DNA from: Candidatus Kaiserbacteria bacterium
GTDB lineage: Bacteria > Patescibacteriota > Minisyncoccia > Phycocordibacterales > UBA2100
Length of the DNA stretch: 64,000 bases
Direction of reading: 5' to 3'
Assembly (NCBI GenBank): GCA_016432285.1
Contig: CP066682.1
Coordinates: 666,274-730,273 of the forward strand
Numbering within the stretch: the first letter of the stretch is position 1; every line of letters starts with the position of its first letter. Under the pieces are notes generated by a model that was not told the DNA's origin, made no database searches, and worked only from the letters and a program-made list of their open reading frames with translations. The translations under genes and the position numbers were made by a program. This document shows, piece by piece, positions 15,714 through 49,725 of the stretch.

Positions 15714-15723
15714 GGTGGGGAGA

Positions 15724-16790: not shown

Positions 16791-16886
16791 ATTGCTCTCC
16801 CTTGGAGACACTGTGGTTGCATAGACCTCTATACAACCTGATGTCTCCAAAAGATGAGGGTCGGCGAATCCGCAAAGATTCGCCGA

Positions 16887-17102: not shown

Positions 17103-17121
17103 AGATCAGAAAGATCAAACA

Positions 17122-17146
17122 AAAGCCCTCCTTGCGGAGGGCTTTT
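17122..17146 (-). terminator. rho-independent terminator downstream of aroK (minus orientation)
   Basis: AAAGCCCTCC-ttgc-GGAGGGCTTT; on the minus strand followed by TTTTGTTTGATCTTTCTGATCTTT. Confidence 0.6.
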
Positions 17147-17263
17147 GTCTGAGTGTCTCGGGAGCTAGGCAGTCAGGCAAAAGACCTCCGCGCGGGAGGA
17201 CATCATCGCCATCATCATCGCCTTCGAATACATACCGGAAGTGTAATCGGCCGGGCTGTTTCG

Positions 17264-19006: not shown

Positions 19007-19579
19007 ATGAGAAAGCGCACGCCGCGAGCGAACAATCACCTCTTGCAGGATCTTGGCTTGGTCGCCTTGAGCGTGCTCGTGGCTCTCCTTCTCGCACGCA
19101 CGAGCACACTCGCCGATCTCGTGGCCTCGTGGGGACAGTACGAATTTTTCGGCATCCTTGCGGTTGGGATGTTTTTCACTTCGATATTCACGACCGCCCC
19201 CGCGATCGCGACACTCGGGGAGATTTCGCTGGAGCAGCCGATCCTGCTCGTCGCCTTTTTTGGCGCGATGGGGTCAGTCTTGGGAGACCTCCTGATTTTT
19301 CGTTTCGTCAGAGACAGGTTTTCGGTCGATGTGATGGAAATCGTACGGGAAAGTAAGGGCCTCCGGCGCCTTCGCAAAATCTTTCACTTCAAGCACTTCC
19401 GCTGGTTTACCTTCTTCCTCGGCGCGCTCGTGATCGCCTCGCCCTTGCCGGACGAGCTTGGCATCGCGCTCCTCGGGCTCTCGCGCGCGAGCATGCGATG
19501 GTTTGTAGCCGTCTCCTTCGGTTTCAACTTCCTCGGGATCTACCTGATCGGCATGGCCGCTCGCGCGCTCGCGAGCTGA
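19007..19579 (+). CDS. hypothetical membrane protein (190 aa, 4-5 TM)
   Basis: Hydrophobic segments, non-Arg-rich composition; its 3' end overlaps the convergent ATPase gene by 40 nt across a GCTCGCGCGCTCGCGAGC palindrome. Confidence 0.45.
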   Translation: MRKRTPRANNHLLQDLGLVALSVLVALLLARTSTLADLVASWGQYEFFGILAVGMFFTSIFTTAPAIATLGEISLEQPILLVAFFGAMGSVLGDLLIFRFVRDRFSVDVMEIVRESKGLRRLRKIFHFKHFRWFTFFLGALVIASPLPDELGIALLGLSRASMRWFVAVSFGFNFLGIYLIGMAARALAS

Positions 19580-22176
19580 AGAGTGCGGCGTGACTCACGA
19601 GTGCGGAAGATGAGCTTCCCTGCCTCGATCGCCGCGATATTGAGAAGCCCCACGGCCACGACCGCCGCTCCCCACGGCAGCGGCAAGGGCACCGTGCCGA
19701 GAATCTCTTGGAGGAAAGGCACGTACAGCGCGGCGAGCATGAGAAGGAGGCCCGCACCGACGCCCGAGAGTAGATACTTGTTGCCGAAAAGTCCGTATTC
19801 AAAAATGCTCCGCTCAAGACTCCGGAGCGAAAAAGCAAGAAAGAGCGTGTAGCTGCCGAAGCTCGCGAAGATAAATGTTTGGACGATTTCCGGCGAGAGG
19901 GCAGTGCGCGAGAGCAGCCAATAGAGAAGGAGGAGGAGCGCGGTGGAGGAGAAGCCGATGAAGATGATCAAAAATTTCATGAGCGGATCGAAGAGCGCTC
20001 CACGCCGCGTGGGGGCCCCTGAGAGCTCGTCCTTTTCGAAGGCAAACGCGATCGCCGGAAAGCTGTCGGAAAAAAAGTTGACGTAGAGGATCTGGAGCGC
20101 GCTCAAAGGGAGCGCGAGCCCGAGCACGATGGAGCCGCCGATGAGAAGGAGCTCATCGAAGACCGAAGAGAGCATGTAGACGAGCACCTTGCTGATATTT
20201 TTGCGAATCTGTCTTCCCTCCTCCACGGCTGCAACGATCGTCTCGAAGTTGTCGTCGAGAATCACGAGGTCGGCCACATCTCGCGCCACTTCCGTGCCGC
20301 TCCCCATGGCCACGCCGACGTCGGCTTGCTTGATACTCGGCGCATCGTTGACGCCGTCGCCCGTCATAGCCACGACTTCGCCCGCGCTCTGGAGCGCCTT
20401 TGTGAGCAGCATCTTGTCGAGCGGGGATACACGCGAGATCACCCGAAGGCCCCCGAGCCGAGCCGCAAGCTGCTGCGGCGAAAGCGTCCGCAGCTCGGAG
20501 GCATCGAGCACGCTCCCCGGAGGCGTGGGCAGCCCCACCTCGCGCGCGATTGCTTCCGCCGTGCCGCGGTGATCGCCCGTCATGATCACCGTGCGGATGC
20601 CTGCGCGTTCCACGCGGCGTATCGCCTCTTGCACGCCGAGGCGGATCGGATCGCGCAAGGTGATGAGTCCTTTGAAGTGCAAATGTTCGCTCGGCAATGC
20701 TTTCGGGAAATGTTGTGCGTCTTTCGCATCAATCTCTTTTGTGGCCACCGCCACCACAAACTCCCCCGCTGTGGCGAGCGCGTCGATGCGCGCGAGAAGC
20801 TCGCGGCGCTTTGGCTCATCGAGCTGCGAGTGCCCCACCAGGATCTCGGCGGCCCCAAAAAAGACGAGCTTGCGCTTCCCGCCCTCTTCGGTGAGCGAGA
20901 CGGAGAATTTGTTGACCGCATTAAACGGCAGCGACGCACGCACCGGGAGGCGCCGCCGCACCTCTTCCACTGATATGTCGCGCATCGCCCCCGCCCGCAC
21001 GAGCGCCACCTCCAAAAGCTTGCCGCTCATGCGCCACTCGGCAGGCGGATCATCTGGATTTTCCACGAGTACGTTGGAATTGAGGAGCGCGTACTCGAGG
21101 AGGACGCCCTTTTCCACGCCTTCCGGCAAGAGTTTGTCGAGCTCCATCTTTGCCATGGTGAGCGTGCCTGTTTTGTCGGTGAGGATCACCGTGGTATCGC
21201 CGAGCGCTTCCGCCGCGACGAGCTTGCGGATCACCCCTCTGCGCTTTGCCATACGCTGTACGCCGATCGCGAGGATGACCGTAAGCGCCACCGGAAGGCC
21301 TTCGGGCACGGCTGCCACGGCGACTGCGACCGACGTAACGAACATGTCGAAGACCGAGTAACCGGCCCAAATCCCGACCCCAAAGACGAGGATGGCAAGG
21401 CCGCCAAGGAAAAATCCGGCCCTCGCGCTGAATCGCTGAATCGCCGCCTGGAGCGGCGTGTCTTCCGCTTCGGCAGCCCCCACGAGCTCGGCGATCCGAC
21501 CGAGCTCGGTCGCGGAATCGGTGCGGCAGACGATCGCCGTGCCAAGCCCCTGCGTAACGAGCGTCCCCGCAAAGACCATCGAGAGCTGGTCGGCCACTCC
21601 CGCATCGGTGGGCACGGCTTCCACCCCCTTCACGATCGGCAGCGACTCGCCGGTGAGAAGTGCCTCATCGACCTGGAGGTCGTTGACGAAAACGAGACGC
21701 GCATCCGCGGGAATCCGGTCGCCCTGCGAGATACGGATGATGTCGCCCGGTACCAAAAGCGATGCGTCGATCTCGTGCTCGCCTTCGGCTCGCAGCACGC
21801 GGGCGCGATCGCGGAGGTAGGTCTTCAGCTCCGAAAGCGCCTGCTCGGCCTTGTACTCCTGATAGAAGCCGAGAGAGGCGTTGACGATGACGGCTGCGAA
21901 AATAAAGAGCGAGTCGCGCACATGGCCGATGAGAAGCGTGAGCACCGCAGCAAAGGCGAGGATGAGGATCAGGGGGCTGCGAAACTGCTGGAGCAGAATG
22001 AAAAAAAGGCCGCTTCGCTTTCGCTTCTCAAATACGTTCGCCCCAAAAACCGAGAGACGCCGCCTGGCCTCCGCCTCGGGGAGCCCCGCGTGCACGTCGG
22101 AAGCAAGGAGGTCGGCTACCTCTTCTGGCGCGAGCGCAGCGAACGGGCGCTTCAGAAGCTCGAGACCAATCGGCAT
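19540..22176 (-). CDS. cation-transporting P-type ATPase (P2-type, Ca2+/Mg2+-like)
   Basis: DKTGTLT phosphorylation motif, [14 protein letters not shown], 10 predicted TM, 878 aa. Confidence 0.9.
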
Positions 22177-25134: not shown

Positions 25135-25151
25135 TTAAACTTCCGTTTTTG

Positions 25152-25236
25152 CGGAGAGGGAGGGATTCGAACCCTCGATGCCTTTCGACATGCCGGTTTT
25201 CGAAACCGGTGCTTTCAACCACTCAGCCACCTCTCC
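25152..25236 (-). tRNA. tRNA-Ser (anticodon CGA), type II with long variable arm
   Basis: Cloverleaf folded by hand: acceptor GGAGAGG/CCTCTCC, anticodon stem CCGGT/ACCGG with loop TTCGAAA, variable arm ATGTC-GAAA-GGCAT, T-loop TTCGAAT; no encoded CCA. Confidence 0.85.
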
Positions 25237-25353: not shown

Positions 25354-25425
25354 GGCCCTATCGTCTAGTGGTTAGGACAGCGCCTTTTCAAGGCGTTAAC
25401 CGGGGTTCGATTCCCCGTAGGGTCA
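25354..25425 (+). tRNA. tRNA-Glu (anticodon UUC)
   Basis: Acceptor GGCCCTA/TAGGGTC, anticodon stem GCGCC/GGCGT, loop TTTTCAA, T-arm CGGGG-TTCGATT-CCCCG; TATATT box upstream. Confidence 0.85.
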
Positions 25426-25599: not shown

Positions 25600-26490
25600 T
25601 TAACTGTGCAGCCAAATATAGAGGTCCCTAAAAACCATCTCGGCCCTGCCATTGCGCCTCACAATTTCTGCGAGCCTTTCACCGATGCCACGCTGCGCTG
25701 CCTCCGGGAGCCGCTCCCAGTCGGTGCGCAAAATAAACGATAGTAGCAACTTTCCGTCTCGATTAGGACTGAACGCGCCGTCCTGAAAACAGGAACTTAC
25801 GTCCGTGTGAGCATTGACGATCTCTGATTGATTTTCAATATTTAACTTTGCAAGCTCCGCTACGATTTCCTCCCCTGGCAATTCCGGCGCAGGCTGGGCA
25901 GTATGTTTATGTAGCTCTGCGAGCAGCTCATACCTGTCGCTTGTTGAGGAATAGATTGTTATCAGACCGACGCCGTTCGTATCCAGCGAATTGGCGAATT
26001 TCTGCAAGGTATTTGTTTCCTTCGGTGTATTCCTCCAATCCTGAATGTAGTACCAAACATGAGAGGACATTGAGAAATCCGAAAGTGGTGGATCGTGGGA
26101 CGGATCTTCAAACGGTATCACTTGGTAATCTGAAACAATGTCTGACAATCCCGCCGTGATTGCATTCGTATTAAATTCTGATGCCATTGTTTGAGAAACG
26201 TCCTCGCAAGAAATTGAGATGTTATCTTTTGTGCCCCGCTCCGCGATAAAGGATTTAAGCAGGGGTAATTCCAACCCGCCGTTCCCAGCGCCCATTACAT
26301 ATATGCGAAATAGTTGTTCTGAATTGCGTAGCTTGCTCCAAGCAGCGGGCGCCATTCGTTGAATGCCACTTAGTGTGGCGTCGAGTTGCACCTCCTTCTG
26401 ATCCGTGTTGCGGAGAAACACGGCAAATCGCTCTCTTGCTGCATTAAACGCTCCAGTACGCACCGCTTCTCCAGTCGACATCGTTTCCAT
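25600..26490 (-). CDS. class I SAM-dependent methyltransferase-like protein (low-GC, probably acquired)
   Basis: Motif I IYVMGAGNGGLELPLL followed by acidic ISCED; likely start METMSTGE at 26490; gene GC about 48%; divergent from the alkA-like gene. Confidence 0.55.
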   Translation of the reverse strand: METMSTGEAVRTGAFNAARERFAVFLRNTDQKEVQLDATLSGIQRMAPAAWSKLRNSEQLFRIYVMGAGNGGLELPLLKSFIAERGTKDNISISCEDVSQTMASEFNTNAITAGLSDIVSDYQVIPFEDPSHDPPLSDFSMSSHVWYYIQDWRNTPKETNTLQKFANSLDTNGVGLITIYSSTSDRYELLAELHKHTAQPAPELPGEEIVAELAKLNIENQSEIVNAHTDVSSCFQDGAFSPNRDGKLLLSFILRTDWERLPEAAQRGIGERLAEIVRRNGRAEMVFRDLYIWLHS

Positions 26491-26566
26491 CCTACAGGCA
26501 TCAAATATCAGACGCCAGCATTGTTTTATCGAATCCTGTTCTCGGTACAATGGGCTCACCGAGCGC

Positions 26567-27187
26567 ATGACGAACAATCTTCGAAAATCGATTTTGATCT
26601 TGAAGCGCGACCCGCGGTTCGCGCCGATCGTGCGAAAGTACGGTAAGCCCGATCTCACGCGCTACTTCGGCGGCATCGGGATCTTTCCGGCGCTGCTGCG
26701 CTCAATCGTGTACCAGCAGCTCTCGGGCCACGCGGCGCGCGCGATCCTCGCGCGCGTACTCGTGCTCTTTCCACGCGGGAAGCCAACGCCGCGCCGCCTG
26801 ATCAAGCTCCCCGCGGGAAAGCTCCGGGCCGCCGGCCTCTCCGTGCAGAAGATTTCGTACGTGCGTGATCTCGCGCACAAGTGCCTCGACGGCACGATCG
26901 ACGAGAAGCAATTCCCGACGATGAGCAGCGAGGAGATTGTGCAACACCTCACGCAGGTGCGCGGCGTCGGGCAGTGGTCCGCGCACATGGTGCTCATCTT
27001 TACCCTGCACCGGCTCGACATTTTGCCCACGGGAGATCTTGGTATCCGCAAGGGCTTCCAGATTCTCTACAAACTACGCACACTCCCGGACAAAAAGAAA
27101 ATGGAGAGTCTGGCGCGCCCGTGGCACGCGCACGCTTCGATCGCGAGCTGGTATCTCTGGCAGATCGCGGACGAAAATAAAAAGTGA
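26567..27187 (+). CDS. DNA-3-methyladenine glycosylase II / HhH-GPD family base-excision glycosylase (AlkA-like)
   Basis: Internal ATG at 26567 (MTNNLRKSILILKRDPRFAPIVRKYG...); HhH-GPD hallmark VRGVGQWSAHMVL...ILPTGDLGIRKG with catalytic Asp. Confidence 0.75.
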   Translation: MTNNLRKSILILKRDPRFAPIVRKYGKPDLTRYFGGIGIFPALLRSIVYQQLSGHAARAILARVLVLFPRGKPTPRRLIKLPAGKLRAAGLSVQKISYVRDLAHKCLDGTIDEKQFPTMSSEEIVQHLTQVRGVGQWSAHMVLIFTLHRLDILPTGDLGIRKGFQILYKLRTLPDKKKMESLARPWHAHASIASWYLWQIADENKK

Positions 27188-27414: not shown

Positions 27415-27525
27415 AGAGGTAACTTACGAGTAAGGGTTCGCGAATCGCGAACGCACGGGTAAGCCTAACGGTACGCGCGTGAGAGTGTGGTGAACTGCGG
27501 CGCCTCGCCGATTTAATGAATCCGC

Positions 27526-27560
27526 TTGACTTGACCCGAGTCCCCTGTTGTAGTTATAGT
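27526..27560 (+). promoter_or_regulatory. strong sigma70-like promoter (TTGACT/TTGACC-18nt-TATAGT) with 5' leader hairpin and perfect SD for 27628 gene
   Basis: Hexamers read directly; leader hairpin GAACGGGG-aatc-CCCCGTTC at 27570-27589; AGGAGG at 27617-27622, 5 nt before ATG. Confidence 0.5.
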
Positions 27561-27627
27561 ACTGCTTAGGAACGGGGAATCCCCCGTTCGAAACGCAACC
27601 TGAACCGAACCACATGAGGAGGATCTG

Positions 27628-28638
27628 ATGAATCACGTTCTCTCTATCGGCGACCGGCGCCATCTTCCATTTTTGACTGATATCGACGGAAGTCGTGCCG
27701 ACGCCGGGGAATACGCCTGTTCGTATCGCAAGGAGTGTGATGTGATGCCCGTATTTACCGCCTCCCCCTACGGGGTGACGGTGGGGTTCTTCGTCTACTG
27801 CGGCGGCGAGCGCAAGCTCGTGCACAGTTGCTCGCAGACGGCATGCATCATTGGCGGCTGGCGCGCGTTCCGACTCCTGGAGCGCGTCGAGAGCGTCAAT
27901 TACGGCACTCCGCTGGCGGCACTCCGTGTCGCCGACGATAGCGTGGTGGGCGAGATCACTGCCTCGGCCGAACGCTACTTCTCGTCGCCAGCCGCTTACC
28001 GGAGCGCGTGCTCCGATATTCGCGAAGCGGTGCCAGACCTGGATACTCTCGCCAACATGTTGCAGATCGTGATCCGGACCAAGGCTACAGTCCGGCTCGA
28101 CGGCATCATGCGCGTATTCGGGAATAACCCGCCGAGTGAAATCCGGCCCCTGCTCCAGAGCGTGAATCCGATCTCGGGGCAGACCGACCTGGTCTGCGAG
28201 GACTGGGTCCCGTTTGCCGCGCAGATCCGAAAGCGCGGCAGGCACTATAAGGGGTTCCAGGTAGCCGCGATCGGTTATTCGCGGCCGGAAACGCCGGGCG
28301 GGATGCCGTGGGTGTGTGCGGGAGCAAACATGCAGTTCACGGAATACTCGCAACCGATGTGCGCGGAGGATCGGGTCTTGGAGCAGGCTGAGCACGACGA
28401 AATCACGCTCGACCGGCTCCTGATCTACGGCGTGCCGCGCAAGCGCGACACGACGAAGACGCTCCACCCGTGCAGCGAGCGCTGCCTTGCGCGTTTGCAC
28501 GATAAGTACTTGCGCAAGAAGGCGGTGAAGGCGTCGACAATCCTTACGTGCGTGCACGCGGAGACGGGGTTCACGGAGGAGTTCACGCTCCGTGAATACT
28601 TCGCGATGAACGGTGTCATCACTTCCCCGTGGGGGTGA
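27628..28638 (+). CDS. cytidine/deoxycytidylate-deaminase-fold protein: ~230-aa Cys-rich N-terminal domain of unknown function + C-terminal CDA-like zinc deaminase domain (336 aa)
   Basis: C-terminal GANMQFTEYSQPMCAE...(35 aa)...PCSERC parallels the CDA signature G-x-N-x-E-N-x-x-Y...C/H-A-E...P-C-x-x-C (as in B. subtilis Cdd CAE...PCGAC); antisense 377-aa ORF is Arg-rich junk. Confidence 0.55.
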   Translation: MNHVLSIGDRRHLPFLTDIDGSRADAGEYACSYRKECDVMPVFTASPYGVTVGFFVYCGGERKLVHSCSQTACIIGGWRAFRLLERVESVNYGTPLAALRVADDSVVGEITASAERYFSSPAAYRSACSDIREAVPDLDTLANMLQIVIRTKATVRLDGIMRVFGNNPPSEIRPLLQSVNPISGQTDLVCEDWVPFAAQIRKRGRHYKGFQVAAIGYSRPETPGGMPWVCAGANMQFTEYSQPMCAEDRVLEQAEHDEITLDRLLIYGVPRKRDTTKTLHPCSERCLARLHDKYLRKKAVKASTILTCVHAETGFTEEFTLREYFAMNGVITSPWG

Positions 28639-39607: not shown

Positions 39608-40366
39608 ATGACGCGAAGCCTGACTGAAGGCAACTTCCTGAGCCTGGCGGTGAGCGGTCAACGCTTCACCTTCAGGAACAATATGTTCACAAACCTTGCA
39701 GGGAGTTTGCCTCGAATATATCCATGTTCTTCGGGGGTCGATCTCGTGTTCATCGACCTCCTGCGTGCGCTTCCACGCGGCACACTCAACTGTCCTCTTT
39801 TGTGGAACGACGGTGAGTGGTCCGTGGACCCGCTCGCTCGCCTGCTCAAGGACTGGTCCGAGATGGTCCAGGTCATGCGCAGGATTATCGCCGAACGCAT
39901 CACACCGCTGCTGCAACGCGGAATCAAGGTCGTCGCCATCTTCCACGGCTTCGGCCTCAATCTGCTTCTGCACGCGGCGGTAACGCCGGAGTTCAAGTTG
40001 GATCATCCGGTGATCAACCAAGTCTATGAGATACACGGAGGGCTGGTGAAGACCTTCTTCAAGCACTTCAGCCCTCCGGAGTACCTCATCGCCGAGGCAG
40101 ATGCGGAAGCCGTGGCATCGCGGATGGCGAGGGAAAACCCTTCGCTCGCTGCGATTCCGCACCTGCAACGGGTCAAGTTCTCGAAGTTTGAGGAGTCGGC
40201 GATACGAGCGTATCCGACGTTGGTGCCGATGCAGAAGCCTTTTCACTTCATCAAGGCGTCCTTTACCGAAGCCGAGATGACTGCATACGCACAGGACGTT
40301 GTGATCGATCGCATCGAGACCTTCCGCAACCGCGCGGGATGTACTCCTAGAGTTCTGTCAGCGTAA
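39608..40366 (+). CDS. hypothetical protein (252 aa) with atypical codon usage (CTG-rich), possibly acquired
   Basis: Diverse amino-acid composition versus Arg-rich antisense ORF; GGGGGA 6 nt before ATG; hairpin terminator 40381-40408 downstream. Confidence 0.45.
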   Translation: MTRSLTEGNFLSLAVSGQRFTFRNNMFTNLAGSLPRIYPCSSGVDLVFIDLLRALPRGTLNCPLLWNDGEWSVDPLARLLKDWSEMVQVMRRIIAERITPLLQRGIKVVAIFHGFGLNLLLHAAVTPEFKLDHPVINQVYEIHGGLVKTFFKHFSPPEYLIAEADAEAVASRMARENPSLAAIPHLQRVKFSKFEESAIRAYPTLVPMQKPFHFIKASFTEAEMTAYAQDVVIDRIETFRNRAGCTPRVLSA

Positions 40367-40413
40367 CGCGTCACGAACCTGAAGCCCGGCTACGGTCGGG
40401 CTTCTTTCTTGCG

Positions 40414-41895
40414 CTAGAGGTCGGTGCCGGAGTACGAAAGATTCAGACTTTTGTTGCAGAGCGGAAAATCCGGAACGATGTTGCCCGGCCCGATCTCGCC
40501 AAAGAGCGGCCAGTTGCAAAAAGAGGGGTCGGAAATGGCGCACCGCTCGATCCGGCCGTCTTTGTCGAGCCGTACGAAGTCGATGACGCCTCCGCGCCAG
40601 CTCTCGGCCCACCCGAGCGACTCGCCTCCTTTGTATGTCAGCTCTGTAGCGGCAGGGCCCGCAGGCAGGGCCGCGAGCGCCTCGCGTACGATACGAATCG
40701 ATTCAAAAAGCTCCGCCGCCCGGAGGCTGAAGCGAGCGCGCACGTCGCCCGCTTTTTTCATGAGCACGGTGGGCGCGTAGTCGCGATACGCGGCATACGG
40801 ATGATCGCGCCGCAGATCGAAGTCGACGCCGGAGGCGCGTGCGGGGAGCCCGCGCGCACCGTACGCGATTGCCGCCTCGCGCGAGAGCACGCCAGTGGTC
40901 TCAAAGCGCTCCATGAGTCCGTCGCTCTCGTACGCCACTGAAAGGACCGCGCGCATCTCACGCTCGACTCGCGCGAGCGTCGCGAGAATGAAGTCTGTGC
41001 CTACTTTCTCGATGTTATGCGCGCCCCCGAGCACGATCGCGCCGCGCAAAAAGCGGTGACCCACGAGATCCTCGTACATGCGCCGCATCTCCTCCACCAT
41101 GCGAAAGCCCTGCGCCGCCAAAAAAGTAAAGCCTGTGCCCATGCCGCCCATGTTGCCGATATCAAAGACGTGCGCACTCACCCGCTCCAACTCGCACCAG
41201 ATTACACGGAGAGCCTTCGCGCGCGCCGGTACCGAGGCGCCGCACACTTTTTCTACCGCCTCCGCAAAGGCGAGCGTGTGACCCACCACCATATCCCCCG
41301 AGACGCGCTCAATAAAGGGAAAGGCCTCCTGCGGGCTCTTGCCCTCCACGAGCTTCTCCACGCCCTTGTGCTTGAAGAAAAGCTTGCCCTCGAGCGTTAC
41401 GATGCGCTCGCCGCGTACGTTGAAGCGGAAGTGGCCCGGCTCGATGATGCCGGCGTGAATGGGGCCCACGGGAATTTCGTACATACCCTTCCCCTCTACG
41501 CGGTGCATGGGGTACGGCTCATGAGCTTTCGGAAGGCGTGTGTCCCACGCGAAGTCTTTGCGCAAGGGATGAGTGCCGGCCGGAATGTTCTCGTGATGCA
41601 CGAGGCGCCGCCAGTCGGGGTGCCCCTCTGCGCGAATACCGAACTGATCGAAGATGAGGCGTTCGTACCAGTGCGCCGCCATGATCGTGGGCGTGAGAGA
41701 GGGATATACCGGATCCGCTTGCGGCACCTCGGTCCGGAGCGTCGTAAACTCTCCGCCGGATGAGAAGACTGCGTGCACGCCAAAGACACCGAGAGCTTCG
41801 CGCTCGTCGGTTGCGTACAGAAACACGAGCGGAGCACCCTGGTCGACGAGTCTTTTCGATTCAGTCGCAAACGATGAGGTCGGTACGTTTTTCAT
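40414..41895 (-). CDS. fused NuoC/NuoD-like (HycE/HyfG-like [NiFe]-hydrogenase large-subunit homolog) lacking Ni-Fe cysteine ligands
   Basis: N-terminal NuoC block (AHWYERLIFDQFGIRAEGHPDWRRL), NuoD-like core (HFRFNVRGE...); no N-terminal RxCGxC and C-terminal DPSFCNW instead of DPCxxC (single Cys). Confidence 0.75.
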   Translation of the reverse strand: MKNVPTSSFATESKRLVDQGAPLVFLYATDEREALGVFGVHAVFSSGGEFTTLRTEVPQADPVYPSLTPTIMAAHWYERLIFDQFGIRAEGHPDWRRLVHHENIPAGTHPLRKDFAWDTRLPKAHEPYPMHRVEGKGMYEIPVGPIHAGIIEPGHFRFNVRGERIVTLEGKLFFKHKGVEKLVEGKSPQEAFPFIERVSGDMVVGHTLAFAEAVEKVCGASVPARAKALRVIWCELERVSAHVFDIGNMGGMGTGFTFLAAQGFRMVEEMRRMYEDLVGHRFLRGAIVLGGAHNIEKVGTDFILATLARVEREMRAVLSVAYESDGLMERFETTGVLSREAAIAYGARGLPARASGVDFDLRRDHPYAAYRDYAPTVLMKKAGDVRARFSLRAAELFESIRIVREALAALPAGPAATELTYKGGESLGWAESWRGGVIDFVRLDKDGRIERCAISDPSFCNWPLFGEIGPGNIVPDFPLCNKSLNLSYSGTDL

Positions 41896-41896
41896 A

Positions 41897-43345
41897 CTAG
41901 AAAATCGACGCGGCGATTGCGCTCATAATCGTCTGTCCCGCATTTGTAGCGAGCAGTACCCCGAAACTCACGATGAGTACCGCGTGCACCATCATCGCGC
42001 CGTGCGAAATATTGAACGTCTCCCGCTCCACCGACTCCCCTCCCCGCACCGGCGAAAAAAGCAGCGGCATCAGGAAGCGCATGAAGCCCGCGCCGATCAC
42101 AAGAAGTGCAAAAGCGACGAGCGCGAAGGCCACGGGGTGCGTGGAGATGAGTCCGGCAAAAAGGAGGTACTCACTGAAAAAAAGCGGCGAGGGAGGCGCG
42201 GCCAAAAGCGCGAACACGCCAAAAAGAAAGAGGCCGCCGGTGTAGGGGTGGGTTTTCATCACGTCGCCCACGCGCTCAAACTTGGTGCTCTTCCACGCAT
42301 GGAGGATATTGCCCGCGCCAAAAAAGAGCATCGACTTTGTGAGCGCGTGGCCCGTGAGGTGCACGAGCGCCGCGAAGGCGCCAAGCGGCCCAAGACCGAA
42401 GAGAATCGCCGTGATTCCCATGTGCTCGATGGAGGAGTACGCGAGGAGCCGCTTGTAGTCGGTTTGTACGAGAATGAACGCGGCCGGAATCAGCGTAGAG
42501 AGGACGCCGAAAAAGACGAGGAGCACGCTGGTCCATTCTCCCCCGCCTAAGGAGGCGTCCACGAGCGTCTTGTACCGCAGGATCGCAAACAGAGCGGCGT
42601 TGAGAAGCACGCCGGAGAGCATTGCGGAAATCGGCGCCGGGGCGCGGCTGTGCGCGTCGGGAAGCCACGCGTGCATGGGCGCAAGACCCACCTTGGTGCC
42701 GTAGCCGATCAAAACGAAGATAAACGCAATCTGCATGATCTGCGGCGAGAGCGTCGATGCGATCGAGCGGAGGTACGTCCAGTCGATGTTCGGCAAATCC
42801 GGAGCGGCCACCGTAGCCGCGTAGTACGTGAGGAGGAGGCCGATGAGGCCGAGCGAGATCCCGGTCGAGCAGAGCACGATGTACTTCCACGCGGCTTCGA
42901 GCGAGCCCTTGCGGGGATAGAACGAGACGAGGAGCGTGGTCGCGAGCGTGGTGGCTTCGAGCGCGACCCACATGAGGCCGAGGTTGTCGACCGCGACCGT
43001 GAGCATCATCGAGAAGATGAAGGCGGAGAGGAGCGCGAAATAGCGGCGCGCGTGGGCCACGTCGATCGTGCCCTCGTGCAGCTCGGTGCTGATGAAAGGT
43101 ACGCTCACGAGCGTCGCCGACCACTGCAAAAAGGCGATGATGAGAAGCAGCAAAGCGGCAAAGGGATCGAGGTACCACACACCACTCTGGAGCGTGCCGC
43201 CCGCAAGAAGCGGTAGCGTGATGTATGCGGCGAGCGCGAAGAGCGCGGTACTCAGTGTCGATACGGCAGGAAAGAGAGCGCGCTTCGGCAGCGTGAGCGC
43301 GGCGATTGCCGAGAGCGATCCGATGAGAAAGAGTGCGGTGATCAT
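41897..43345 (-). CDS. NuoM/NuoN-like (HyfF-like) antiporter-type membrane subunit
   Basis: 14 TM; conserved GLAPMHAWLPDAH motif of complex I antiporter-like subunits. Confidence 0.8.
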   Translation of the reverse strand: MITALFLIGSLSAIAALTLPKRALFPAVSTLSTALFALAAYITLPLLAGGTLQSGVWYLDPFAALLLLIIAFLQWSATLVSVPFISTELHEGTIDVAHARRYFALLSAFIFSMMLTVAVDNLGLMWVALEATTLATTLLVSFYPRKGSLEAAWKYIVLCSTGISLGLIGLLLTYYAATVAAPDLPNIDWTYLRSIASTLSPQIMQIAFIFVLIGYGTKVGLAPMHAWLPDAHSRAPAPISAMLSGVLLNAALFAILRYKTLVDASLGGGEWTSVLLVFFGVLSTLIPAAFILVQTDYKRLLAYSSIEHMGITAILFGLGPLGAFAALVHLTGHALTKSMLFFGAGNILHAWKSTKFERVGDVMKTHPYTGGLFLFGVFALLAAPPSPLFFSEYLLFAGLISTHPVAFALVAFALLVIGAGFMRFLMPLLFSPVRGGESVERETFNISHGAMMVHAVLIVSFGVLLATNAGQTIMSAIAASIF

Positions 43346-43346
43346 A

Positions 43347-43994
43347 TTAGTCGACGAGCTCGCGGAGGTATTCGGTCGCGAGTGATCCCTGCTCCGCCTG
43401 CGCCCGCAAGACGAGGAGGATGATGAGCGTTACGAACACGCAGAGATCGAAGAGGATCCCAATCTCGACGAAAAACGGCATGCCGCCGGTCATCGCGAGC
43501 CCGAGGAGGAAGATGCCGTTCTCCGTCACGAGGAAGCCGACGGCCTGACCGAACATGTCGGTGCGCGTAAGCAAGAGGAGCATGCCGAGCATCACGAGGG
43601 AGAGCGAAGCGCCGAGCGCGACGACATCGCTCGGCTCTTGTATGAAGCGCCAGGCCGCGAGGAACGAGAGCGCGACGATCGCAAGCCCGCCGAACGTGGC
43701 CGTGGTGGGACGAACGTACGATTGGAGCCGGAGGTTGATGTTGTACTTCTTCGCGATGCGCGTGAGAAACTCCGGGATGAGAAGCACTTTCACGATGAGG
43801 ACGAGGGCGCCGACGGCAAAGAGGGGCCGCTCCCCTTCCATCCATCCGAGCATGAAGGCAAAGCCCGCAAGGAGGAGCGAGAGGAGGCGGAACATCGCGA
43901 TCAGCGAGGAAAAGCGCATGCGGCTGATCAGAATGAGCGCCACGACGACCATCATCGCGCCAAAGGCCGCTGTCGCTGCGAAGACGGAAATCAT
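43347..43994 (-). CDS. HyfE-like small membrane subunit (215 aa)
   Basis: Six hydrophobic segments; size and operon position match hydrogenase-4 component E. Confidence 0.55.
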   Translation of the reverse strand: MISVFAATAAFGAMMVVVALILISRMRFSSLIAMFRLLSLLLAGFAFMLGWMEGERPLFAVGALVLIVKVLLIPEFLTRIAKKYNINLRLQSYVRPTTATFGGLAIVALSFLAAWRFIQEPSDVVALGASLSLVMLGMLLLLTRTDMFGQAVGFLVTENGIFLLGLAMTGGMPFFVEIGILFDLCVFVTLIILLVLRAQAEQGSLATEYLRELVD

Positions 43995-44905
43995 ACGGCG
44001 CCGGAGAGCTTCGAAAGAATAATGAGTGCCGCCCCGCCGAGCGCGAAGAGGAAGGCGAGCGCCATGTACTCCTGCATGCGGTAGAAGCGCATTTTGACGA
44101 TGGTCGATTCGACGAAGGCGACGAGAAACGCGGCGAGGATGAGCTTGCCGAGAAACAGCAGGGCGAGCACCGTGCCACTTGCGGCAAAGCTCGGTAAAAG
44201 GAGCGATACGAAAAGCGTGCCGAGTACGGTGAGTTTGATCGCCGAGGCGTACTCGAGGAGCGCGAGGTACGGCCCGGAGTATTCGAGCATCATGGCTTCG
44301 TGCACCATCGTAAGCTCCAGGTGCGTCGCCGGATTGTCGACCGGATAACGGGCGTTTTCAGCGAGCACCACAAAGAAGAGCGCGATGAGCGTGACGGCCG
44401 TGAGCACGTGCGAGCCCGCGGTGGCGCTCGTGAAGTGCGCGATGATGTCGCCCATCCCGAAGGAGCCGGCAAAGAGGGCGAGCGAAGCGAATACGATAAA
44501 AAGCGGCGGCTCCACGAGCGCGATGAGGCTCATTTCCCTACTCGATCCCATGTTGCCGAAGGTGCTCGCCGTATCCATGCCGCCGAGTACGAGGAAAACG
44601 GAGCCAAGCGCGAGCACTCCTGCGATCAGGAAGACGTTGCCGTACGTGCCGGCGATGGGCACCGCGGGCACGAGCGCAGCGAGTGCGATCGTGCTCCCCA
44701 ATACCACAAACGGCACGGTGTGGAAGACCCACGAGCTGTATCTCGTGATCGTCATGTCTTTCCGCAAAAGTGAGAGGAGCGCCCAGTACGGCTGGAAGAT
44801 CGACGCGCCACGCCGATTCTGGAAGAGCGCTTTAAACTTTCGCACGAGACCGACCGTAAGCGGCGAGGCGAGCAGTATGAGTAGTGTCGGCAGCAGAATG
44901 GTCAT
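43991..44905 (-). CDS. NuoH-like (HyfC/HycD-like) membrane subunit, 304 aa
   Basis: Internal ATG at 44905 (MTILLPTLLILLASPLTVGLVRKF...) overlapping upstream gene by ATGA; NuoH-type topology; upstream 123 codons of the track ORF overlap HyfB and are Arg/His-rich. Confidence 0.8.
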   Translation of the reverse strand: MTILLPTLLILLASPLTVGLVRKFKALFQNRRGASIFQPYWALLSLLRKDMTITRYSSWVFHTVPFVVLGSTIALAALVPAVPIAGTYGNVFLIAGVLALGSVFLVLGGMDTASTFGNMGSSREMSLIALVEPPLFIVFASLALFAGSFGMGDIIAHFTSATAGSHVLTAVTLIALFFVVLAENARYPVDNPATHLELTMVHEAMMLEYSGPYLALLEYASAIKLTVLGTLFVSLLLPSFAASGTVLALLFLGKLILAAFLVAFVESTIVKMRFYRMQEYMALAFLFALGGAALIILSKLSGAV

Positions 44906-46869
44906 AGTGCGATGAAGAGCGTCAGGATAAGCGTGAGCAAAACGAGCAGCAGGTAGAACTGCACGACGCCGCTCTGGAGGCGCCTTACAGAGTGCGCCAC
45001 GCGCACGATTCCGTGCCCCAGGGGTTTGTAGAGCCAGACTTCCCAGATCGAATGGATCTGCCAATCGAGGTGCTTTTTGGTGACCCACGGATTGCTCGCG
45101 ACCACGGGGGTGGTAATGATCTCGCGGCGCGCCCCCAGGAGGGTGCGGAAGAAGAAGCGGATTGGAGCGGCAAATCCGGTGGAAGTGTACTGCATGCGCG
45201 GCGTGAGGGGCGCGCCGCAATCCCACGTATCGGTGATGCGGATTTTCGTTCGCAGCACGCGGGTGATCAGCCACAGCGCGAGTGCGGGAGCAGCGAGAAT
45301 GAGCGCGACGAGCGTGGGATCAATCCCCGCACCCGGCGCCACAACCACCTCCGCGCCAAAGAGCTTGCCTACGGGAATACCGGAAATGAGGGGAAACGCG
45401 ACGAGGCCGACGCCAAGAGAGAGGAGCGCGCAGATCGCGACGGGTGTGGCAAGGATCCATGAGAGCGCGCCTGCGTGCTCCGCCGCTTCCGTGCGTGCGC
45501 GTCCGAGAAAGACGAGGCTGAAGAATTTGACGAAGGCGAAAATCGCGAGTCCGCCGACGAGCGCGACCGACGAGAGCACGAGGAGTGCGGTAAAGCGCGA
45601 CGCCGGATCCCCCGCTCCGAGACCAAGCGCGAGTGCCTGCACGAGCGCCCACTCGCCGAAGAAGGTCCCCAAGGGCGGGAGCGCGGCCGCCGCGAGCGAA
45701 AGCGCGAGCACCACGCCCGAAAAGAGCGGCCACCTTCGCGCGAGTCCGCCGAGCGAATCAAGGTCGCGCGTATGCGTGGCGCTCTGGATCACGCCGGCAG
45801 CCATGAAGAGTCCCGACTTGAAGAGGAAGTGGTTGAGAATGTGGAGCATGACGAAAAGAGCAAAAAGCGGCGCGAGTGGCGCAAGAGCAGCGGTGCCGCT
45901 CGTAAGAAAGTAGAGCGCGATGCCCGCAAAGATGAGCCCCATGTTCTCGATGCTGCTCCACGCAAGGAGACGCTTCGCGTCGTTTTCGACCGCCGCGTGC
46001 AGCGCGCCAAAAAAAGCCGAGACGAGCCCGAGGAGGAGCACGACGAGCATCCACGGGAAAAGAAGACTGGGGAAAAACGTGAGCGACTGCAAGAAACCGA
46101 AGACCGCCACTTTCAGCATCACGCCCGAGAGGAGCGCCGATGAGCCGGAGGGCGCCTGCGGGTGCGCGTACGGAAGCCACTGGTGCAGGGGCACAAGGCC
46201 CGCCTTCGATCCGAATCCGGCAAAGAGGAGCGCGAACGCGAGCGAAAGCGGCAGCGCGCCGAGTGTCGCCGCCCCTTGCGCGAGCTCGGCCCACGAGAGC
46301 AGCGGATTGCCACCCGAGAGGATCAGGAGCCCGGCGGCGAGCGCGAGAAAACCGAGGTGCGTCATCACGAAGTACAAAAAGCCGGCGCGCAGCGAATCTT
46401 CCGTACGATCCGCGATCACGAGGAAATACGCGGCGATCGACATGAGCTCCCATGCCAAAAGAAACGTCAGTACCGAAGGCGCGAGCACCACCGCCTGCAT
46501 GCCGATCAAGAAGAGTGCCGAGGCGACGTTGAGCCACGGCAGCACGTAGATCTCCTTATATTTTGCGAGCGCCGCGATCGAGTAGAACGAGGTAAGCAGC
46601 ACGCCCGCATAGATGATCCCCAAAAATGGCACGCCAAGCGGCTGGAGGACACCGAGGCCGCCGATCTGTAACGAGGAAAGGGAGCCCGCAAACATCTCAA
46701 GCGCTAAAAGCGCGACTGCACCGAGCCCCACGAGCCCGGAGAGCGCAAAGAGCACTTGCGTGAGCGTATTGCTCCAGGAGACGCGCCGTAGAAGAAGCCC
46801 GAGGAGCGCGGCGAATGCGGGCGTCGCGAGGGCAAAGAGAAAAAGACGCGAGATGAGGAGGGGGTCCAT
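44902..46869 (-). CDS. NuoL-like (HyfB-like) antiporter-type membrane subunit, 655 aa
   Basis: Multiple TM with GLVPLHQWLPYAH motif. Confidence 0.85.
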   Translation of the reverse strand: MDPLLISRLFLFALATPAFAALLGLLLRRVSWSNTLTQVLFALSGLVGLGAVALLALEMFAGSLSSLQIGGLGVLQPLGVPFLGIIYAGVLLTSFYSIAALAKYKEIYVLPWLNVASALFLIGMQAVVLAPSVLTFLLAWELMSIAAYFLVIADRTEDSLRAGFLYFVMTHLGFLALAAGLLILSGGNPLLSWAELAQGAATLGALPLSLAFALLFAGFGSKAGLVPLHQWLPYAHPQAPSGSSALLSGVMLKVAVFGFLQSLTFFPSLLFPWMLVVLLLGLVSAFFGALHAAVENDAKRLLAWSSIENMGLIFAGIALYFLTSGTAALAPLAPLFALFVMLHILNHFLFKSGLFMAAGVIQSATHTRDLDSLGGLARRWPLFSGVVLALSLAAAALPPLGTFFGEWALVQALALGLGAGDPASRFTALLVLSSVALVGGLAIFAFVKFFSLVFLGRARTEAAEHAGALSWILATPVAICALLSLGVGLVAFPLISGIPVGKLFGAEVVVAPGAGIDPTLVALILAAPALALWLITRVLRTKIRITDTWDCGAPLTPRMQYTSTGFAAPIRFFFRTLLGARREIITTPVVASNPWVTKKHLDWQIHSIWEVWLYKPLGHGIVRVAHSVRRLQSGVVQFYLLLVLLTLILTLFIAL

Positions 46870-46870
46870 A

Positions 46871-47401
46871 CTAGGTGCGCGCTTTTTCGATCGCGGCGAG
46901 GAGCCCTTTCAAGATCTGTAGCGGCGAGGGCGGATCGCCGAAAATCTTCGCGTCAACCGGGATTACCTTCTCCACCGCACCCACCACAGCGTACGAGCCT
47001 GCCCAGATGCCTCCCGTGCATGCGCCGTCGCCCACGGCGATCACCATGCGCGGCTCGGGAGTCATGTCGTAGGCGGTCCGCAAAGCGTGCTCCATGTTGC
47101 GCGTGACGGGCCCAGAGACCGTGAGAATGTCGGCATGGCGCGGAGAGGCGACGAAGGAGAGGCCGAATCGCTCACTATCATGATAGGCGTTGCCGAGGGC
47201 GGTCATTTCGTACTCCTCCGCATTGCTTGATCCTGCGTCGACATGGCGAATCCGAAGCGAGCGGCCGCCGTAGAGCCGCGTGATCGCCCGTTTGAGATTT
47301 TCCCCCGTTACCTCGATGTCCGTGCTCCCCACTTGCGGCGCCTGCTCGGTTACCGTGCCCGTTTTAATGATTCTGGCAAGCAGGGAAAGCATATTTTGCA
47401 A
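46871..47401 (-). CDS. NuoB-like ([NiFe]-hydrogenase small-subunit-like) protein lacking Fe-S cluster cysteines
   Basis: Aligns to NuoB (ASPRHADILTVSGPVTRNM; MTPEPRMVIAVGDGACTGG) but CC->SS (AGSSNAEEYEM) and CPP->DPP (IFGDPP), leaving 1 of 4 cluster-N2 Cys; start TTG 47401 or ATG 47392. Confidence 0.75.
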   Translation of the reverse strand: MQNMLSLLARIIKTGTVTEQAPQVGSTDIEVTGENLKRAITRLYGGRSLRIRHVDAGSSNAEEYEMTALGNAYHDSERFGLSFVASPRHADILTVSGPVTRNMEHALRTAYDMTPEPRMVIAVGDGACTGGIWAGSYAVVGAVEKVIPVDAKIFGDPPSPLQILKGLLAAIEKART

Positions 47402-47503
47402 ATAATGCTGGGTACTCTACGCTCCGAATGCCCCCCTGTCCAGCGCGGTTTTTCGGCACGTACGTTCATTGCGTCATCAGCGCATCGACGGTATATAAGA
47501 TGA

Positions 47504-48094
47504 ATGAGAGAGGTGGCACTCGATCCGCCATACACGCCCCTCACGCAGCAGCGCATGTGCTGCGTTCCCTGTGCCGTGCAGTGGGTGCTCTTGCGGCGCG
47601 GACTCCCCATTTTTACGCAAGAGAAGATCGGCGAGGCGCTCGATCTCACCGTACCGCCCGTTCACAAGAAGCTCTTTTGCGAAGGGGTGATGGTGAGCAT
47701 TACGGAGCCTGCCCACGGATGGGGCTCGAAGACCGACGGCCACGACGCCCTCAACAAGTTTTTCAAGGAAAACCGCCTCCCCGTGCGCGCCAGGCACGTG
47801 AAGCACTCCGCACTCAAAAAGCCGGAGGATCTCATTGAGCGCAACATCAAAAAGGGCAACGATGTGATGTTTATCACCTTCATGGGAGTGATCGACAAAA
47901 AATACCGCTGGGGCCACGCGCTCGTCGTGAGCGCCTTGAAGCGCGAGAAGGAACCGGTCGTTACCGTGGGTGACCCGAATTTCGTGGCGCCAAAGTTCTA
48001 CGACCTTCCGCTCTCGCTGATCCTCAAAGGCATGAGTGCCCGCCACGGCAAGGCCGAGCGCGGCCTCTACATTTTTTCCACCGCGAAACGCTAA
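47504..48094 (+). CDS. hypothetical protein, possible papain-like (C39-like) cysteine peptidase fold
   Basis: QQRMCCVPCAVQW (Gln/Cys), RWGHALVVSAL (His in HxVVV context), GDPNF (Asp) in the order of the C39 catalytic residues; TATATAAG directly upstream of ATG. Confidence 0.35.
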   Translation: MREVALDPPYTPLTQQRMCCVPCAVQWVLLRRGLPIFTQEKIGEALDLTVPPVHKKLFCEGVMVSITEPAHGWGSKTDGHDALNKFFKENRLPVRARHVKHSALKKPEDLIERNIKKGNDVMFITFMGVIDKKYRWGHALVVSALKREKEPVVTVGDPNFVAPKFYDLPLSLILKGMSARHGKAERGLYIFSTAKR

Positions 48095-48809: not shown

Positions 48810-48857
48810 CAGTGCAGGAGCGCTCAGTAAAGGGCGCTCTTATACGTGGAGGATTCC

Positions 48858-49154
48858 ATGGCCATCTTGCGACCCAACGAACATCTTCGGCTCCCTCCCG
48901 AAGCGATGAGCTTGGAGGGTGCCGGCATGGCGACGATCGTCGTTACCTACCCGCGGCTCGATCACCCGAAGATCCTACAGACCTTTGCCTGGCAGGAGAT
49001 CGATCTCTACCCGTGGTTCCCCGTCATGAACGCCTTTCTGTGCGATTGGATCGTCAACAAAGACTCCAAGCCGCAGTCGGCACGAGTGATGCACTCGCAG
49101 ATGCGGGGTTGGGCTGAGTTCAAGATGGTCGCCGGTGTCTTCCGCCTCCAGTGA
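48858..49154 (+). CDS. hypothetical protein (98 aa)
   Basis: ATG at 48858 (MAILRPNE...) with GGAGGA 7 nt upstream; track ORF starts at GTG 48846. Confidence 0.35.
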   Translation: MAILRPNEHLRLPPEAMSLEGAGMATIVVTYPRLDHPKILQTFAWQEIDLYPWFPVMNAFLCDWIVNKDSKPQSARVMHSQMRGWAEFKMVAGVFRLQ

Positions 49155-49458: not shown

Positions 49459-49725
49459 GTGAAGATGACCACAATCCAGGGTCCGAATGGTCGGACTTTC
49501 ACGATCGATGCCCATGGCCGAAAGGTCGACGAGGATGGATTCAAGACCTCGTCCTTCTCGGAATACGGCGATCTCAGCCGGTGGCACTGCGTCGCGGTCA
49601 AGATCGACGGCGACATGGTGCAGGTCCGCGACACCAAGGATCCGTCCAAGGCGACGCTCAACTACACGCGCGCTGAATGGGCGGGGTTCGTCCGGGGCGT
49701 CAAGGTCGGCGAGTTCGACGTCTGA
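49459..49725 (+). CDS. DUF397-domain protein (88 aa)
   Basis: FKTSSFSEYGDLSRWHCVAVKIDGDMVQVRDTKDPSKATLNYTRAEWAGFVRGVKVGEFD matches the DUF397 signature (KSS.S....CVEV.......VRDSKDP....L.F...EW..F...VK.GEFD); AGGAG upstream; GTG/ATG start. Confidence 0.6.
   Translation: MKMTTIQGPNGRTFTIDAHGRKVDEDGFKTSSFSEYGDLSRWHCVAVKIDGDMVQVRDTKDPSKATLNYTRAEWAGFVRGVKVGEFDV

Follow-up and report, generated by a model that had tools for sequence, protein, structure and literature searches.

On the minus strand of a 64-kb stretch of Candidatus Kaiserbacteria DNA (the window, in whose numbering coordinates are given below), positions 40414-47401 hold a six-gene operon for a membrane complex related to complex I and hydrogenase-4. 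An original prediction, made from the sequence alone, had described a six-gene minus-strand operon here and named the kind of each subunit, and both points agree with the Pfam and NCBIfam matches reported below. The six co-directional open reading frames (ORFs) stand in the ORF list of the window, independent gene calls on a Logan contig of identical sequence return the same six genes, and identical large- and small-subunit proteins are present in NCBI under Candidatus Kaiserbacteria. In gene order, we refer to them as S, A, B, C, D, and L.

The first gene, S (46871..47401), encodes a small subunit like NuoB, HycG, and MbhJ that is without [4Fe-4S] ligands. It matches Pfam Oxidored_q6 (E=3e-23); among solved structures its top match is MbhJ (6cfw_J, E=6e-27), and HycG (7z0s_G) is also found. 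Translation from TTG at 47401 gives 176 amino acids (aa) and from ATG at 47392 gives 173 aa, the latter being the NCBI product, and the ATG is most likely the start. A (44902..46869, 655 aa) is an antiporter-type subunit of the HyfB/HycC/NuoL kind, with matches to Proton_antipo_M (E=5e-47), to NCBIfam hydrogenase-4 subunit B (E=1e-125, under the curated cutoff), and to the solved structure of HycC (7z0s_C, E=2e-46). B (43991..44905, 304 aa, starting at 44905) is HyfC/HycD/NuoH-like and matches NADHdh (E=4e-35), HycD (7z0s_D, E=1e-24), and MbhM (6cfw_M, E=1e-20). The small HyfE-like membrane subunit C (43347..43994, 215 aa) is recognized by the NCBIfam model of the hydrogenase-4 membrane subunit (E=1e-15); it has no Pfam match and no sequence match to solved structures, even at E<=1. 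D (41897..43345, 482 aa) is a second antiporter-type subunit, HyfF/NuoN-like, that matches Proton_antipo_M (E=8e-49), NCBIfam hydrogenase-4 subunit F (E=8e-110, under the cutoff), and MbhH (6cfw_H, E=2e-29). The last gene, L (40414..41895, 493 aa), encodes a fused NuoC/NuoD-like large subunit of the HycE/HyfG type without Ni-Fe ligands, in which Pfam finds Complex1_30kDa, Complex1_49kDa (E=1e-35), and NiFeSe_Hases and which matches HycE (7z0s_E, E=1e-60). These family matches lie far above chance. The NCBIfam scores of the operon proteins are all well under the equivalog cutoffs; none of the six counts as a canonical Nuo, Hyf, or Hyc member.

The genes are tightly packed. ATGA overlaps, as predicted, join A to B and B to C, and single-nucleotide spacers separate S from A, C from D, and D from L; the six genes form a translationally coupled operon. 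A motif scan places a promoter-like site, TGGACA-17 nt-TAGAGT (47414..47442, minus strand), about 20 nt upstream of the S start. This site is the sole sigma-70-like match between 39900 and 48200, a region for which shuffled sequences average 1.6 matches, which makes it weak evidence. At the other end, a GC-rich hairpin, GAAGCCCGGCTACGGTCGGGCTTC, with a 10-bp stem that includes 7 G-C pairs (40381..40404), starts 10 nt past the L stop, between that stop and a convergent 252-aa gene, and is likely a bidirectional terminator.

Ligand positions of the cap and charges of the membrane arm

We aligned S to MbhJ (6cfw_J) and HycG (7z0s_G). At the columns of the four cluster cysteines, S has S59, E62, G126, and D156, with hydrogenase-type GSCNGC aligned to GSSNAE and GCPP aligned to GDPP. 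Across 120 homologues, these columns hold T/S/N, E (120/120), G, and D (118/120). The one remaining cysteine of S, C128, is present in 72/120 homologues, and 41 of the 120 small subunits are entirely free of cysteine. The loss is therefore more complete than the original prediction had it: one of the four N2-cluster cysteines had been counted as kept, and because C128 lies two columns off the ligand position the number is effectively zero. The proposed exchange of CPP for DPP stands (D156), whereas that of CC for SS does not, as the columns concerned are S59 and E62. Most other invariant residues of S are common to relatives that keep the cluster, and the differences gather at the old cluster pocket, where three cysteines have given way to E62, G126, and D156 and a threonine to D125.

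The same holds for the large subunit. Aligned to HycE (7z0s_E), L has S199, M202, S487, and G490 in place of the four cysteines; RVCGIC is aligned to RVSGDM, and DPCYSC to NLSYSG at the extreme C terminus. In 118 homologues the four columns are S/T, M/A, S (118/118), and G (118/118), and C480 is invariant in the same set. The C terminus (...SLNLSYSGTDL) reaches five residues past the motif and has neither a cleavable extension nor a maturation protease site. The quinone-site tyrosine of NuoD (RIEYLG in Escherichia coli NuoCD) aligns to the glycine of RVSGDM, and the loop histidine is not conserved. Loss of both CxxC pairs had been foreseen and is confirmed here, whereas the stretch DPSFCNW, which had been taken for the counterpart of DPCxxC, aligns to AATYANW of HycE, upstream of that motif. 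Scored in the alignments to MbhJ, HycG, and HycE, a check suggested along with the prediction, the ligand columns hold no intact CxxC. These alignments show that all eight ligand positions of the cap are replaced and that the cap has no means of binding a Ni-Fe centre or a [4Fe-4S] cluster.

Homologues of L and S number well over 100 each, at 57-83% identity, and come from Kaiser-, Uhr-, Moran-, Peregrini-, and other Parcubacteria/Patescibacteria. Within the 118 large subunits, where identity goes down to 57%, 128 columns show at least 98% conservation, a pattern that points to purifying selection on a working protein and not to decay.

For the membrane arm, we made alignments to HycC, MbhH, NuoL/M, HycD, and MbhM and counted conservation across the clade. 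Both antiporter-like subunits, A and D, have the glutamate of transmembrane helix 5 (TM5), the lysines of TM7 and TM11, and the glutamate of TM12. At least 95% conservation is found in A for E141, K222, H229, K351, and E406 and in D for E130, K218, K337, and E392; the TM8 lysine position of D is an asparagine. The same threshold is reached by nine acidic residues of B (E124, E132, E183, D190, E197, E203, E208, E218, and E266) and by the membrane glutamates E158 and E177 of C, with the outgroup included in the latter case. Given that the canonical buried charges are kept at this level, ion translocation has probably been retained.

Place among hydrogenase-related complexes

Complexes termed energy-converting hydrogenase related (Ehr) are relatives of the group 4 enzymes that lack Ni-Fe ligands; their function is uncharacterized, and they are suspected of coupling a cytoplasmic reaction to ion translocation (PMC6349859, PMC10284858, 10.1101/765248). 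The operon has two defining features of this group, a HycE-homologous large subunit without Ni-Fe cysteines and genes for NuoL-, NuoH-, HyfE-, and NuoM/N-like subunits together with a large and a small subunit. The same six subunit kinds are encoded by GSU0739-0745 of Geobacter sulfurreducens (EhrA/B/C/D/L/S, also of uncharacterized function; PMC7894505). The subunit set, the ligand loss, and the literature thus bear out the earlier description of the locus as an Ehr-type module, known yet functionally uncharacterized (PMC7304191, PMC6349859). Jaffe et al. (2020) reported that large subunits from the candidate phyla radiation (CPR) form a monophyletic Ehr subclade without metal-binding cysteines, for which interaction with H2 is unlikely; the Ehr small subunit, the ATP synthase, and the antiporter context are absent from their discussion (PMC7304191). 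The core of our observation is therefore already published, and the object described here is best regarded as a cofactor-free member of the reported CPR Ehr clade. We found no earlier statement in the searchable literature, outside which the founding papers of Marreiros et al. (2013) and Coppi (2005) lie, of Fe-S loss with fixed acidic replacements in Ehr. The same literature holds no earlier statement of the small-subunit-first gene order, of Acidobacteriota members, or of the full conservation of the membrane-arm charges, and nothing relevant that would connect the Ehr of CPR bacteria with ATP synthase or with carbonic anhydrase.

Several features set the operon apart from other Ehr clusters. 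Its order is S-A-B-C-D-L rather than A-B-C-D-L-S, and no formate dehydrogenase or NuoEF partner genes accompany it. Its S also lacks the four [4Fe-4S] ligands and has conserved Glu/Asp instead, whereas the closest non-CPR relatives recovered keep all four cysteines (CCCC).

Among characterized enzymes, the E. coli formate hydrogenlyase Hyc (7Z0S) provides the top solved-structure match of L, A, and B and likewise has a fused NuoC/D-like large subunit, and the top NCBIfam matches are to HyfB, HyfF, and HyfE of hydrogenase-4 (Hyf). Unlike Hyc and Hyf, the complex described here has no Ni-Fe ligands, no Fe-S cluster, no HycB/HycF or HyfA/HyfH, no formate dehydrogenase, and no C-terminal extension. 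The marks of a group 4 [NiFe] hydrogenase are missing throughout: the RxCGxC and DPCxxC pairs, the four-cysteine proximal cluster, and, within the window, a NuoI-like subunit and hyp genes. The closest structural relative of S is MbhJ of Pyrococcus furiosus MBH (6CFW); D, A, and B are matched by MbhH and MbhM of the same enzyme, and MBS/Mbx (6U8Y) is a precedent for a non-hydrogenase among the group 4 relatives. Three [4Fe-4S] clusters are retained in MBH and MBS, ferredoxin drives both, and both carry an Mrp-type Na+/H+ module (MbhA-G), which is absent here. Membership in respiratory complex I (Nuo/Nqo) was rejected, as the operon has no quinone-site Tyr/His, no N2 ligands, and only six subunits, and the Nuo equivalogs score far under cutoff. 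An assignment to Mrp was likewise rejected: only two proteins are antiporter-like, and the Mrp models are weak and far under cutoff.

We then turned to the distribution of the operon with a scan of one genome per GTDB species, which returned 80 loci. About 70 of them, spread over Acidobacteriota and many classes of CPR, have the order S-A-B-C-D-L; it goes together with the xEGD pattern in S in every CPR locus and in 13 Acidobacteriota/Vicinamibacterales loci (among them L033, L037, L043, L045, L048, L049, L053, L056, L058, and L059). The Acidobacteriota L proteins are 55-59% identical to that of the window and lie on contigs of up to 5.35 Mb. The cofactor-free clade is therefore not exclusive to CPR. 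In a neighbour-joining tree, built without support values or reference hydrogenases, the window L groups with other relatives lacking Ni-Fe ligands, and one Acidobacteriota clade is nested within CPR, which suggests a single lateral transfer. The loci of Planctomycetota, Hydrothermarchaeota, and Methanomassiliicoccales show 42-45% identity and have no Ni-Fe cysteines either; their order is A-B-C-D-L-S, and their S retains each of the four cluster cysteines, with a total of 12-15 cysteines in the S proteins of the archaea. Judged from these sequences, the window operon belongs to a doubly cofactor-less subclade derived from Ehr-type ancestors that still had the cluster.

A search of 1.84 billion representative proteins gave 150 best relatives of S, most of which have CCCC and about 20 of which are without the ligands. 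The ligand-less relatives P0242, P0255, P0271, P0275, P0285, and P0298 have DAAD, SAES, DADN, DVDD, and other acidic patterns, and some of these lineages (DAAD, SAES) are annotated as Chloroflexota/Dehalococcoidia. Since separate ligand-less lineages differ in their acidic patterns, the Fe-S cluster seems to have been lost independently in several of them.

In a Moranbacteria-type sublineage, the NuoH-like and HyfE-like genes are apparently fused into an ORF of about 530 aa (L029, L032, L036, L038-L042, L046, L047, L050, L055, L062, L064, L066, and L071).

Gene neighbourhoods in relatives and in the window

To describe the genes around the operon, we clustered the flanking ORFs of the 80 loci, 829 in number. 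In 15 of the 26 CPR loci that lie outside the window's clade and have enough upstream sequence, the operon follows atpG-atpD-atpC on the same strand, at most 2.6 kb downstream. Pfam confirms these neighbours as ATP synthase gamma, beta, and epsilon, and their gaps to the operon go down to -3 and 3 nt (L067, L080). The operon directly follows atp genes at L024, L029, L032, L036, L038-L042, L051, L055, L057, and L061 and further at L064, L065, L067, L071, and L080. No redox gene recurs beside the operon in 72 loci.

A second recurrent neighbour is a carbonic-anhydrase-like gene, which lies at most 1.1 kb from the operon in 17/33 CPR loci outside the window's clade, almost always on the same strand. 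Among Kaiserbacteria-like loci the figure is 6/21, five recognized by motif only and one also by a hidden Markov model (HMM), and no such neighbour was found in the Acidobacteriota loci. More than one kind of protein is involved. Gamma-class genes lie just downstream of the operon at L029:11805-12419, L039:11598-12212, L042:11972-12778, L050:7623-7781, and L064:11728-12333; among solved structures they are best matched by CcmM (3kwc, E=4e-36) and by Cam (E=1e-32), with the zinc histidine ligands preserved. A CsoSCA-like family of 340-350 aa adjoins the operon upstream or downstream in 10 loci (L025, L034, L040, L041, L046, L047, L057, L062, L066, and L068). Its conserved motifs are KCxDGR, YH[YF]SxGxxxRGC, and VGxETD, and its match to Pfam CsoSCA is sub-threshold (E=0.003). 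A 473-aa relative of this family at L017:1975-3396 (minus strand) gives an AlphaFold model with a pLDDT of 91.8, and Foldseek matches the model along its full length to carboxysomal CsoSCA (2fgy_A, E=2e-12, also 9g4t and 8thm) and then to ordinary beta-class enzymes. Cys45, Asp47, Arg49, His109, and Cys117 are invariant in the 473-aa family.

A CxDxR...HxxCG-type motif is present in 18 of the 829 flanking ORFs, and 16 of these 18 are within 352 nt of the operon. Small, unrelated-looking proteins beside the operon carry CxDxR- and HxxCG-type motifs like those of beta/zeta-class carbonic anhydrases and are putative members of that group. They are found at L007, L009, L010, and L011 (about 254-275 aa, divergent and upstream), at L017:3414-4295 (minus strand) and L019:3166-4326 (plus strand), and at L024:3165-3896, L027:3574-4203, L042:3318-4322, L026:11644-12759, and L031:11533-12498. 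One of them has a sub-threshold match to the Pfam cadmium carbonic anhydrase repeat (E=0.023).

Outside CPR, Leptospira gomenensis (L082, RQEZ01000046.1) has a CsoSCA-type gene (8001-9416) about 2 kb from an Ehr-type cluster of the order A-B-C-D-L-S (11498-17416). A HindIII-type restriction-modification pair lies between the two, and the small subunit is fused to ferredoxin (Fer4) domains. The 473-aa family shows no linkage to Ehr in two contigs, one from Planctomycetales and one from JGI. With the 473-aa version as query, no CsoSCA-type gene on the window's own contig stood among the 120 of 151 matches listed, a weak negative. The Acidobacteriota flanks gave no recurrent partner gene in an analysis limited by spurious high-GC ORFs.

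The window itself is mostly housekeeping DNA, with genes for RpoB, RpoC, FtsA, FtsZ, ribosomal protein S1, PurH, OMP decarboxylase, and TsaD and further genes for a thioredoxin-reductase-like protein, an ABC exporter, a GT2 glycosyltransferase, DsbA, HSP20, and PrsW. In its 64 kb, no ORF with a ferredoxin-type CxxCxxCxxxCP motif was found in any frame and no formate dehydrogenase or hyp genes in Pfam scans; the predicted absence of these genes and of a NuoI-like subunit nearby, in a housekeeping-dominated setting, is thus borne out for the window. It also holds no atp genes by tblastn and no carbonic-anhydrase-like genes by jackhmmer and motif search. PF10070 (DabA) has no match in the window or in the flanking genes of relatives, and no CupA homologue was found.

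Next to the operon, the convergent gene at 39608-40366 (plus strand) encodes a degenerate P-loop-kinase-like protein of 252 aa that recurs in 8 related loci; it is fast evolving with few invariant residues, and we rejected it as an operon partner. Upstream and divergent lies a gene for a 196-aa protein without assigned function (47504-48094, plus strand), followed by genes for Usg-like and DUF397 proteins (48846-49154 and 49459-49725, both plus strand). The 196-aa gene and the small ORFs beyond it gave no informative Pfam matches except Usg, DUF397, and GNAT. Judged by sequence, none of these immediate neighbours looks like a functional partner.

Two other features of the window may be recorded. 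Positions 19540-22176 (minus strand) encode an 878-aa cation-transporting ATPase of the P type (E1-E2), in which both the N- and the C-terminal cation-ATPase domains are found; it is another primary ion pump of this small genome and bears on how the ion gradient is set up. Between 24001 and 28000, GC content dips to 0.51-0.56 against about 0.60 elsewhere in the window, around tRNA-Ser (25151-25236), tRNA-Glu (25354-25425), and Pfam-less ORFs at 25600-26658 and 27424-28557. This GC-poor stretch may be an acquired island.

A hydrogenase-derived complex without Ni-Fe or Fe-S ligands

CPR bacteria are generally described as lacking electron transport chains. For the complex described here, we give roughly even chances to its being a redox-independent proton/cation translocator coupled to the ion gradient. 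This reading is based on the family-wide loss of the cofactors, the intact and conserved ORFs, the retained ion path, the linkage to atp genes in relatives, and the acidic replacements peculiar to the clade. The complex would then work without electron transfer, as a secondary proton/cation translocator by which H+ (possibly Na+) would be exchanged across the membrane or relayed. It would use or shape the gradient set by the F-type ATPase, in a host expected from the CPR literature to have no respiratory chain. The conserved cap could gate the NuoH-like channel by handling protons or cations without redox chemistry, its old cluster pocket presumably filled by the three acidic residues E62, D125, and D156. 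The functional analogy that we favour is with the Mrp antiporters (7QRU, 6Z16, 7D3U), which are redox independent and gradient driven and share the antiporter-like fold and its Glu/Lys chain; Mrp has no NuoH-, NuoB-, or NuoD-like subunits, and the operon in turn has no MrpB, C, E, F, or G. The original prediction had left a choice between an ion-translocating and a scaffolding device and had set aside a hydrogenase. The membrane charges conserved at 95% or more and the near-invariant columns of L fit the ion-translocating half of that choice, and scaffolding alone appears less likely.

Several points weigh against a plain translocator. The D subunit has asparagine in place of the TM8 lysine, and an ordinary antiporter would not obviously require so conserved a soluble cap. 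In the window's Kaiserbacteria-like clade, the operon is beside atp genes in 0/19 loci, the window included. The lack of redox partners holds for the window, and the presence of the ATPase in this genome is presumed. The literature offers no experiment on any Ehr complex (PMC10284858, 10.1101/765248).

The carbonic-anhydrase-like neighbours raise another possibility, that the complex is the membrane engine of a vectorial carbonic anhydrase system. A partner enzyme of the gamma class or CsoSCA type would hydrate CO2 or dehydrate HCO3- at or near the cap, and the proton would pass through the NuoH-like and antiporter-like channels, so that conversion between CO2 and HCO3- would be tied to the gradient and to the neighbouring ATP synthase. 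Such an arrangement has analogues in DabAB, cyanobacterial NDH-1MS with CupA, and Staphylococcus aureus MpsAB, and a precedent in DAB2, a beta-carbonic-anhydrase-like protein coupled to the proton motive force on a complex-I-type proton subunit (PMC13144422). In DabAB/DAB2, in NDH-1MS with CupA, and in plant complex I with its gamma-carbonic-anhydrase domain, a complex-I-type proton subunit and a carbonic-anhydrase-like protein are coupled to the membrane potential. The complex described here differs from DAB and NDH-1MS in being a full six-subunit, hydrogenase-derived complex and in the CsoSCA or Cam/CcmM type of the carbonic anhydrases, of which the window has none. Membership in DAB was rejected, as PF10070 is not matched in the window or in flanking genes and the neighbours in relatives are of CsoSCA and gamma types.

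The neighbourhoods themselves speak for this possibility: just over half of the CPR loci outside the window's clade (17/33) have a carbonic-anhydrase-like neighbour, five gamma-class genes keep their histidine ligands, the CsoSCA-like family sits beside 10 loci, nearly all motif-bearing flanking ORFs (16/18) lie close to the operon, and Leptospira gomenensis shows a comparable arrangement. The 473-aa relative adds a confidently modelled fold that appears to correspond to CsoSCA over its full length. Against this, no carbonic-anhydrase-like ORF is found in the 64-kb window or in the Acidobacteriota loci, and none from the window's own contig appeared among the 120 of 151 matches listed. The 473-aa family is unlinked in two contigs, the Pfam match of the adjacent family is sub-threshold (E=0.003), and six of the CPR cases consist of a short motif only. 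Adjacency could also reflect shared regulation for pH homeostasis, and a need of fermentative symbionts for active inorganic-carbon uptake is not evident. We regard such a system as a tentative and rather doubtful reading, its standing for this genome lowered by the lack of a carbonic anhydrase gene here. For the clade as a whole, a non-redox, complex-I-sized converter in which the CO2/HCO3- chemistry of a carbonic anhydrase partner would be coupled to the gradient of the F-type ATP synthase next to it is conceivable, and we consider it unlikely.

A redox function is the usual working idea for Ehr, and for complexes of formate dehydrogenase with Ehr a docking oxidoreductase has been proposed (PMC6349859). 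Applied here, ferredoxin, or a docking oxidoreductase with its gene elsewhere, would deliver electrons to an unconventional cofactor or substrate site of the cap and so power the pumping of ions. The four-cysteine motif is kept by relatives from Planctomycetota, Hydrothermarchaeota, Methanomassiliicoccales, and Leptospira, some with extra Fer4 domains; C480 of L is invariant, and our analysis of this genome covers the 64-kb window. In the clade itself, however, the four ligands are replaced throughout by T/S/N, E, G, and D, and a third of the small subunits are free of cysteine. The quinone-site Tyr/His of NuoD are absent as well, as is, in the window, a NuoI-like subunit; the 72 loci show no recurrent redox gene beside the operon, and no electron path into the cap is known without a proximal cluster. 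We therefore judge a redox enzyme improbable.

That the operon is a relic, whether a decaying hydrogenase or a pure membrane scaffold without transport, might be supposed from the lost catalytic cofactors, the reduced host genome, and the lack of a demonstrated function for any Ehr, and is very improbable given the absence of frameshifts and stops, the retained ATGA coupling, identities of 57-83% from one CPR class to another, the 128 near-invariant columns of L, the invariant E and D at old ligand sites, the conservation of all transport residues, the apparent transfer to and retention in large-genome Acidobacteriota, and the 7 kb that a genome of some 0.86 Mb has kept for the operon, which argues for selection.

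Complex I, membrane hydrogenases, and Mrp share one common ion-translocating architecture, and how the cap drives the arm is still debated. The junction of NuoB-, NuoD-, and NuoH-like subunits described here is a natural "redox-null" version that isolates the non-redox part of the coupling mechanism. Should the complex prove to be a plain antiporter, the result would be a modest extension of the work of Jaffe et al. (2020). Of the possibilities that are left, a coupling to the hydration of CO2 in the manner of DAB would be the most interesting. If it held, the complex would be a hydrogenase-derived "vectorial carbonic anhydrase," in which a gradient made from ATP would be used for inorganic-carbon trapping or pH control, or an ion gradient would be built, without a respiratory chain. 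Complex-I coupling machinery would then be drivable by proton chemistry alone, with acidic residues in place of the terminal Fe-S cluster. The family-wide links to F-type ATP synthase and to two unrelated carbonic anhydrase classes are testable leads, for which the Vicinamibacterales homologues and the culturable Leptospira, with its Ehr-carbonic anhydrase neighbourhood, are likely to be more tractable than uncultured CPR. For the CPR bacteria themselves, the operon may bear on how they manage their membrane potential.

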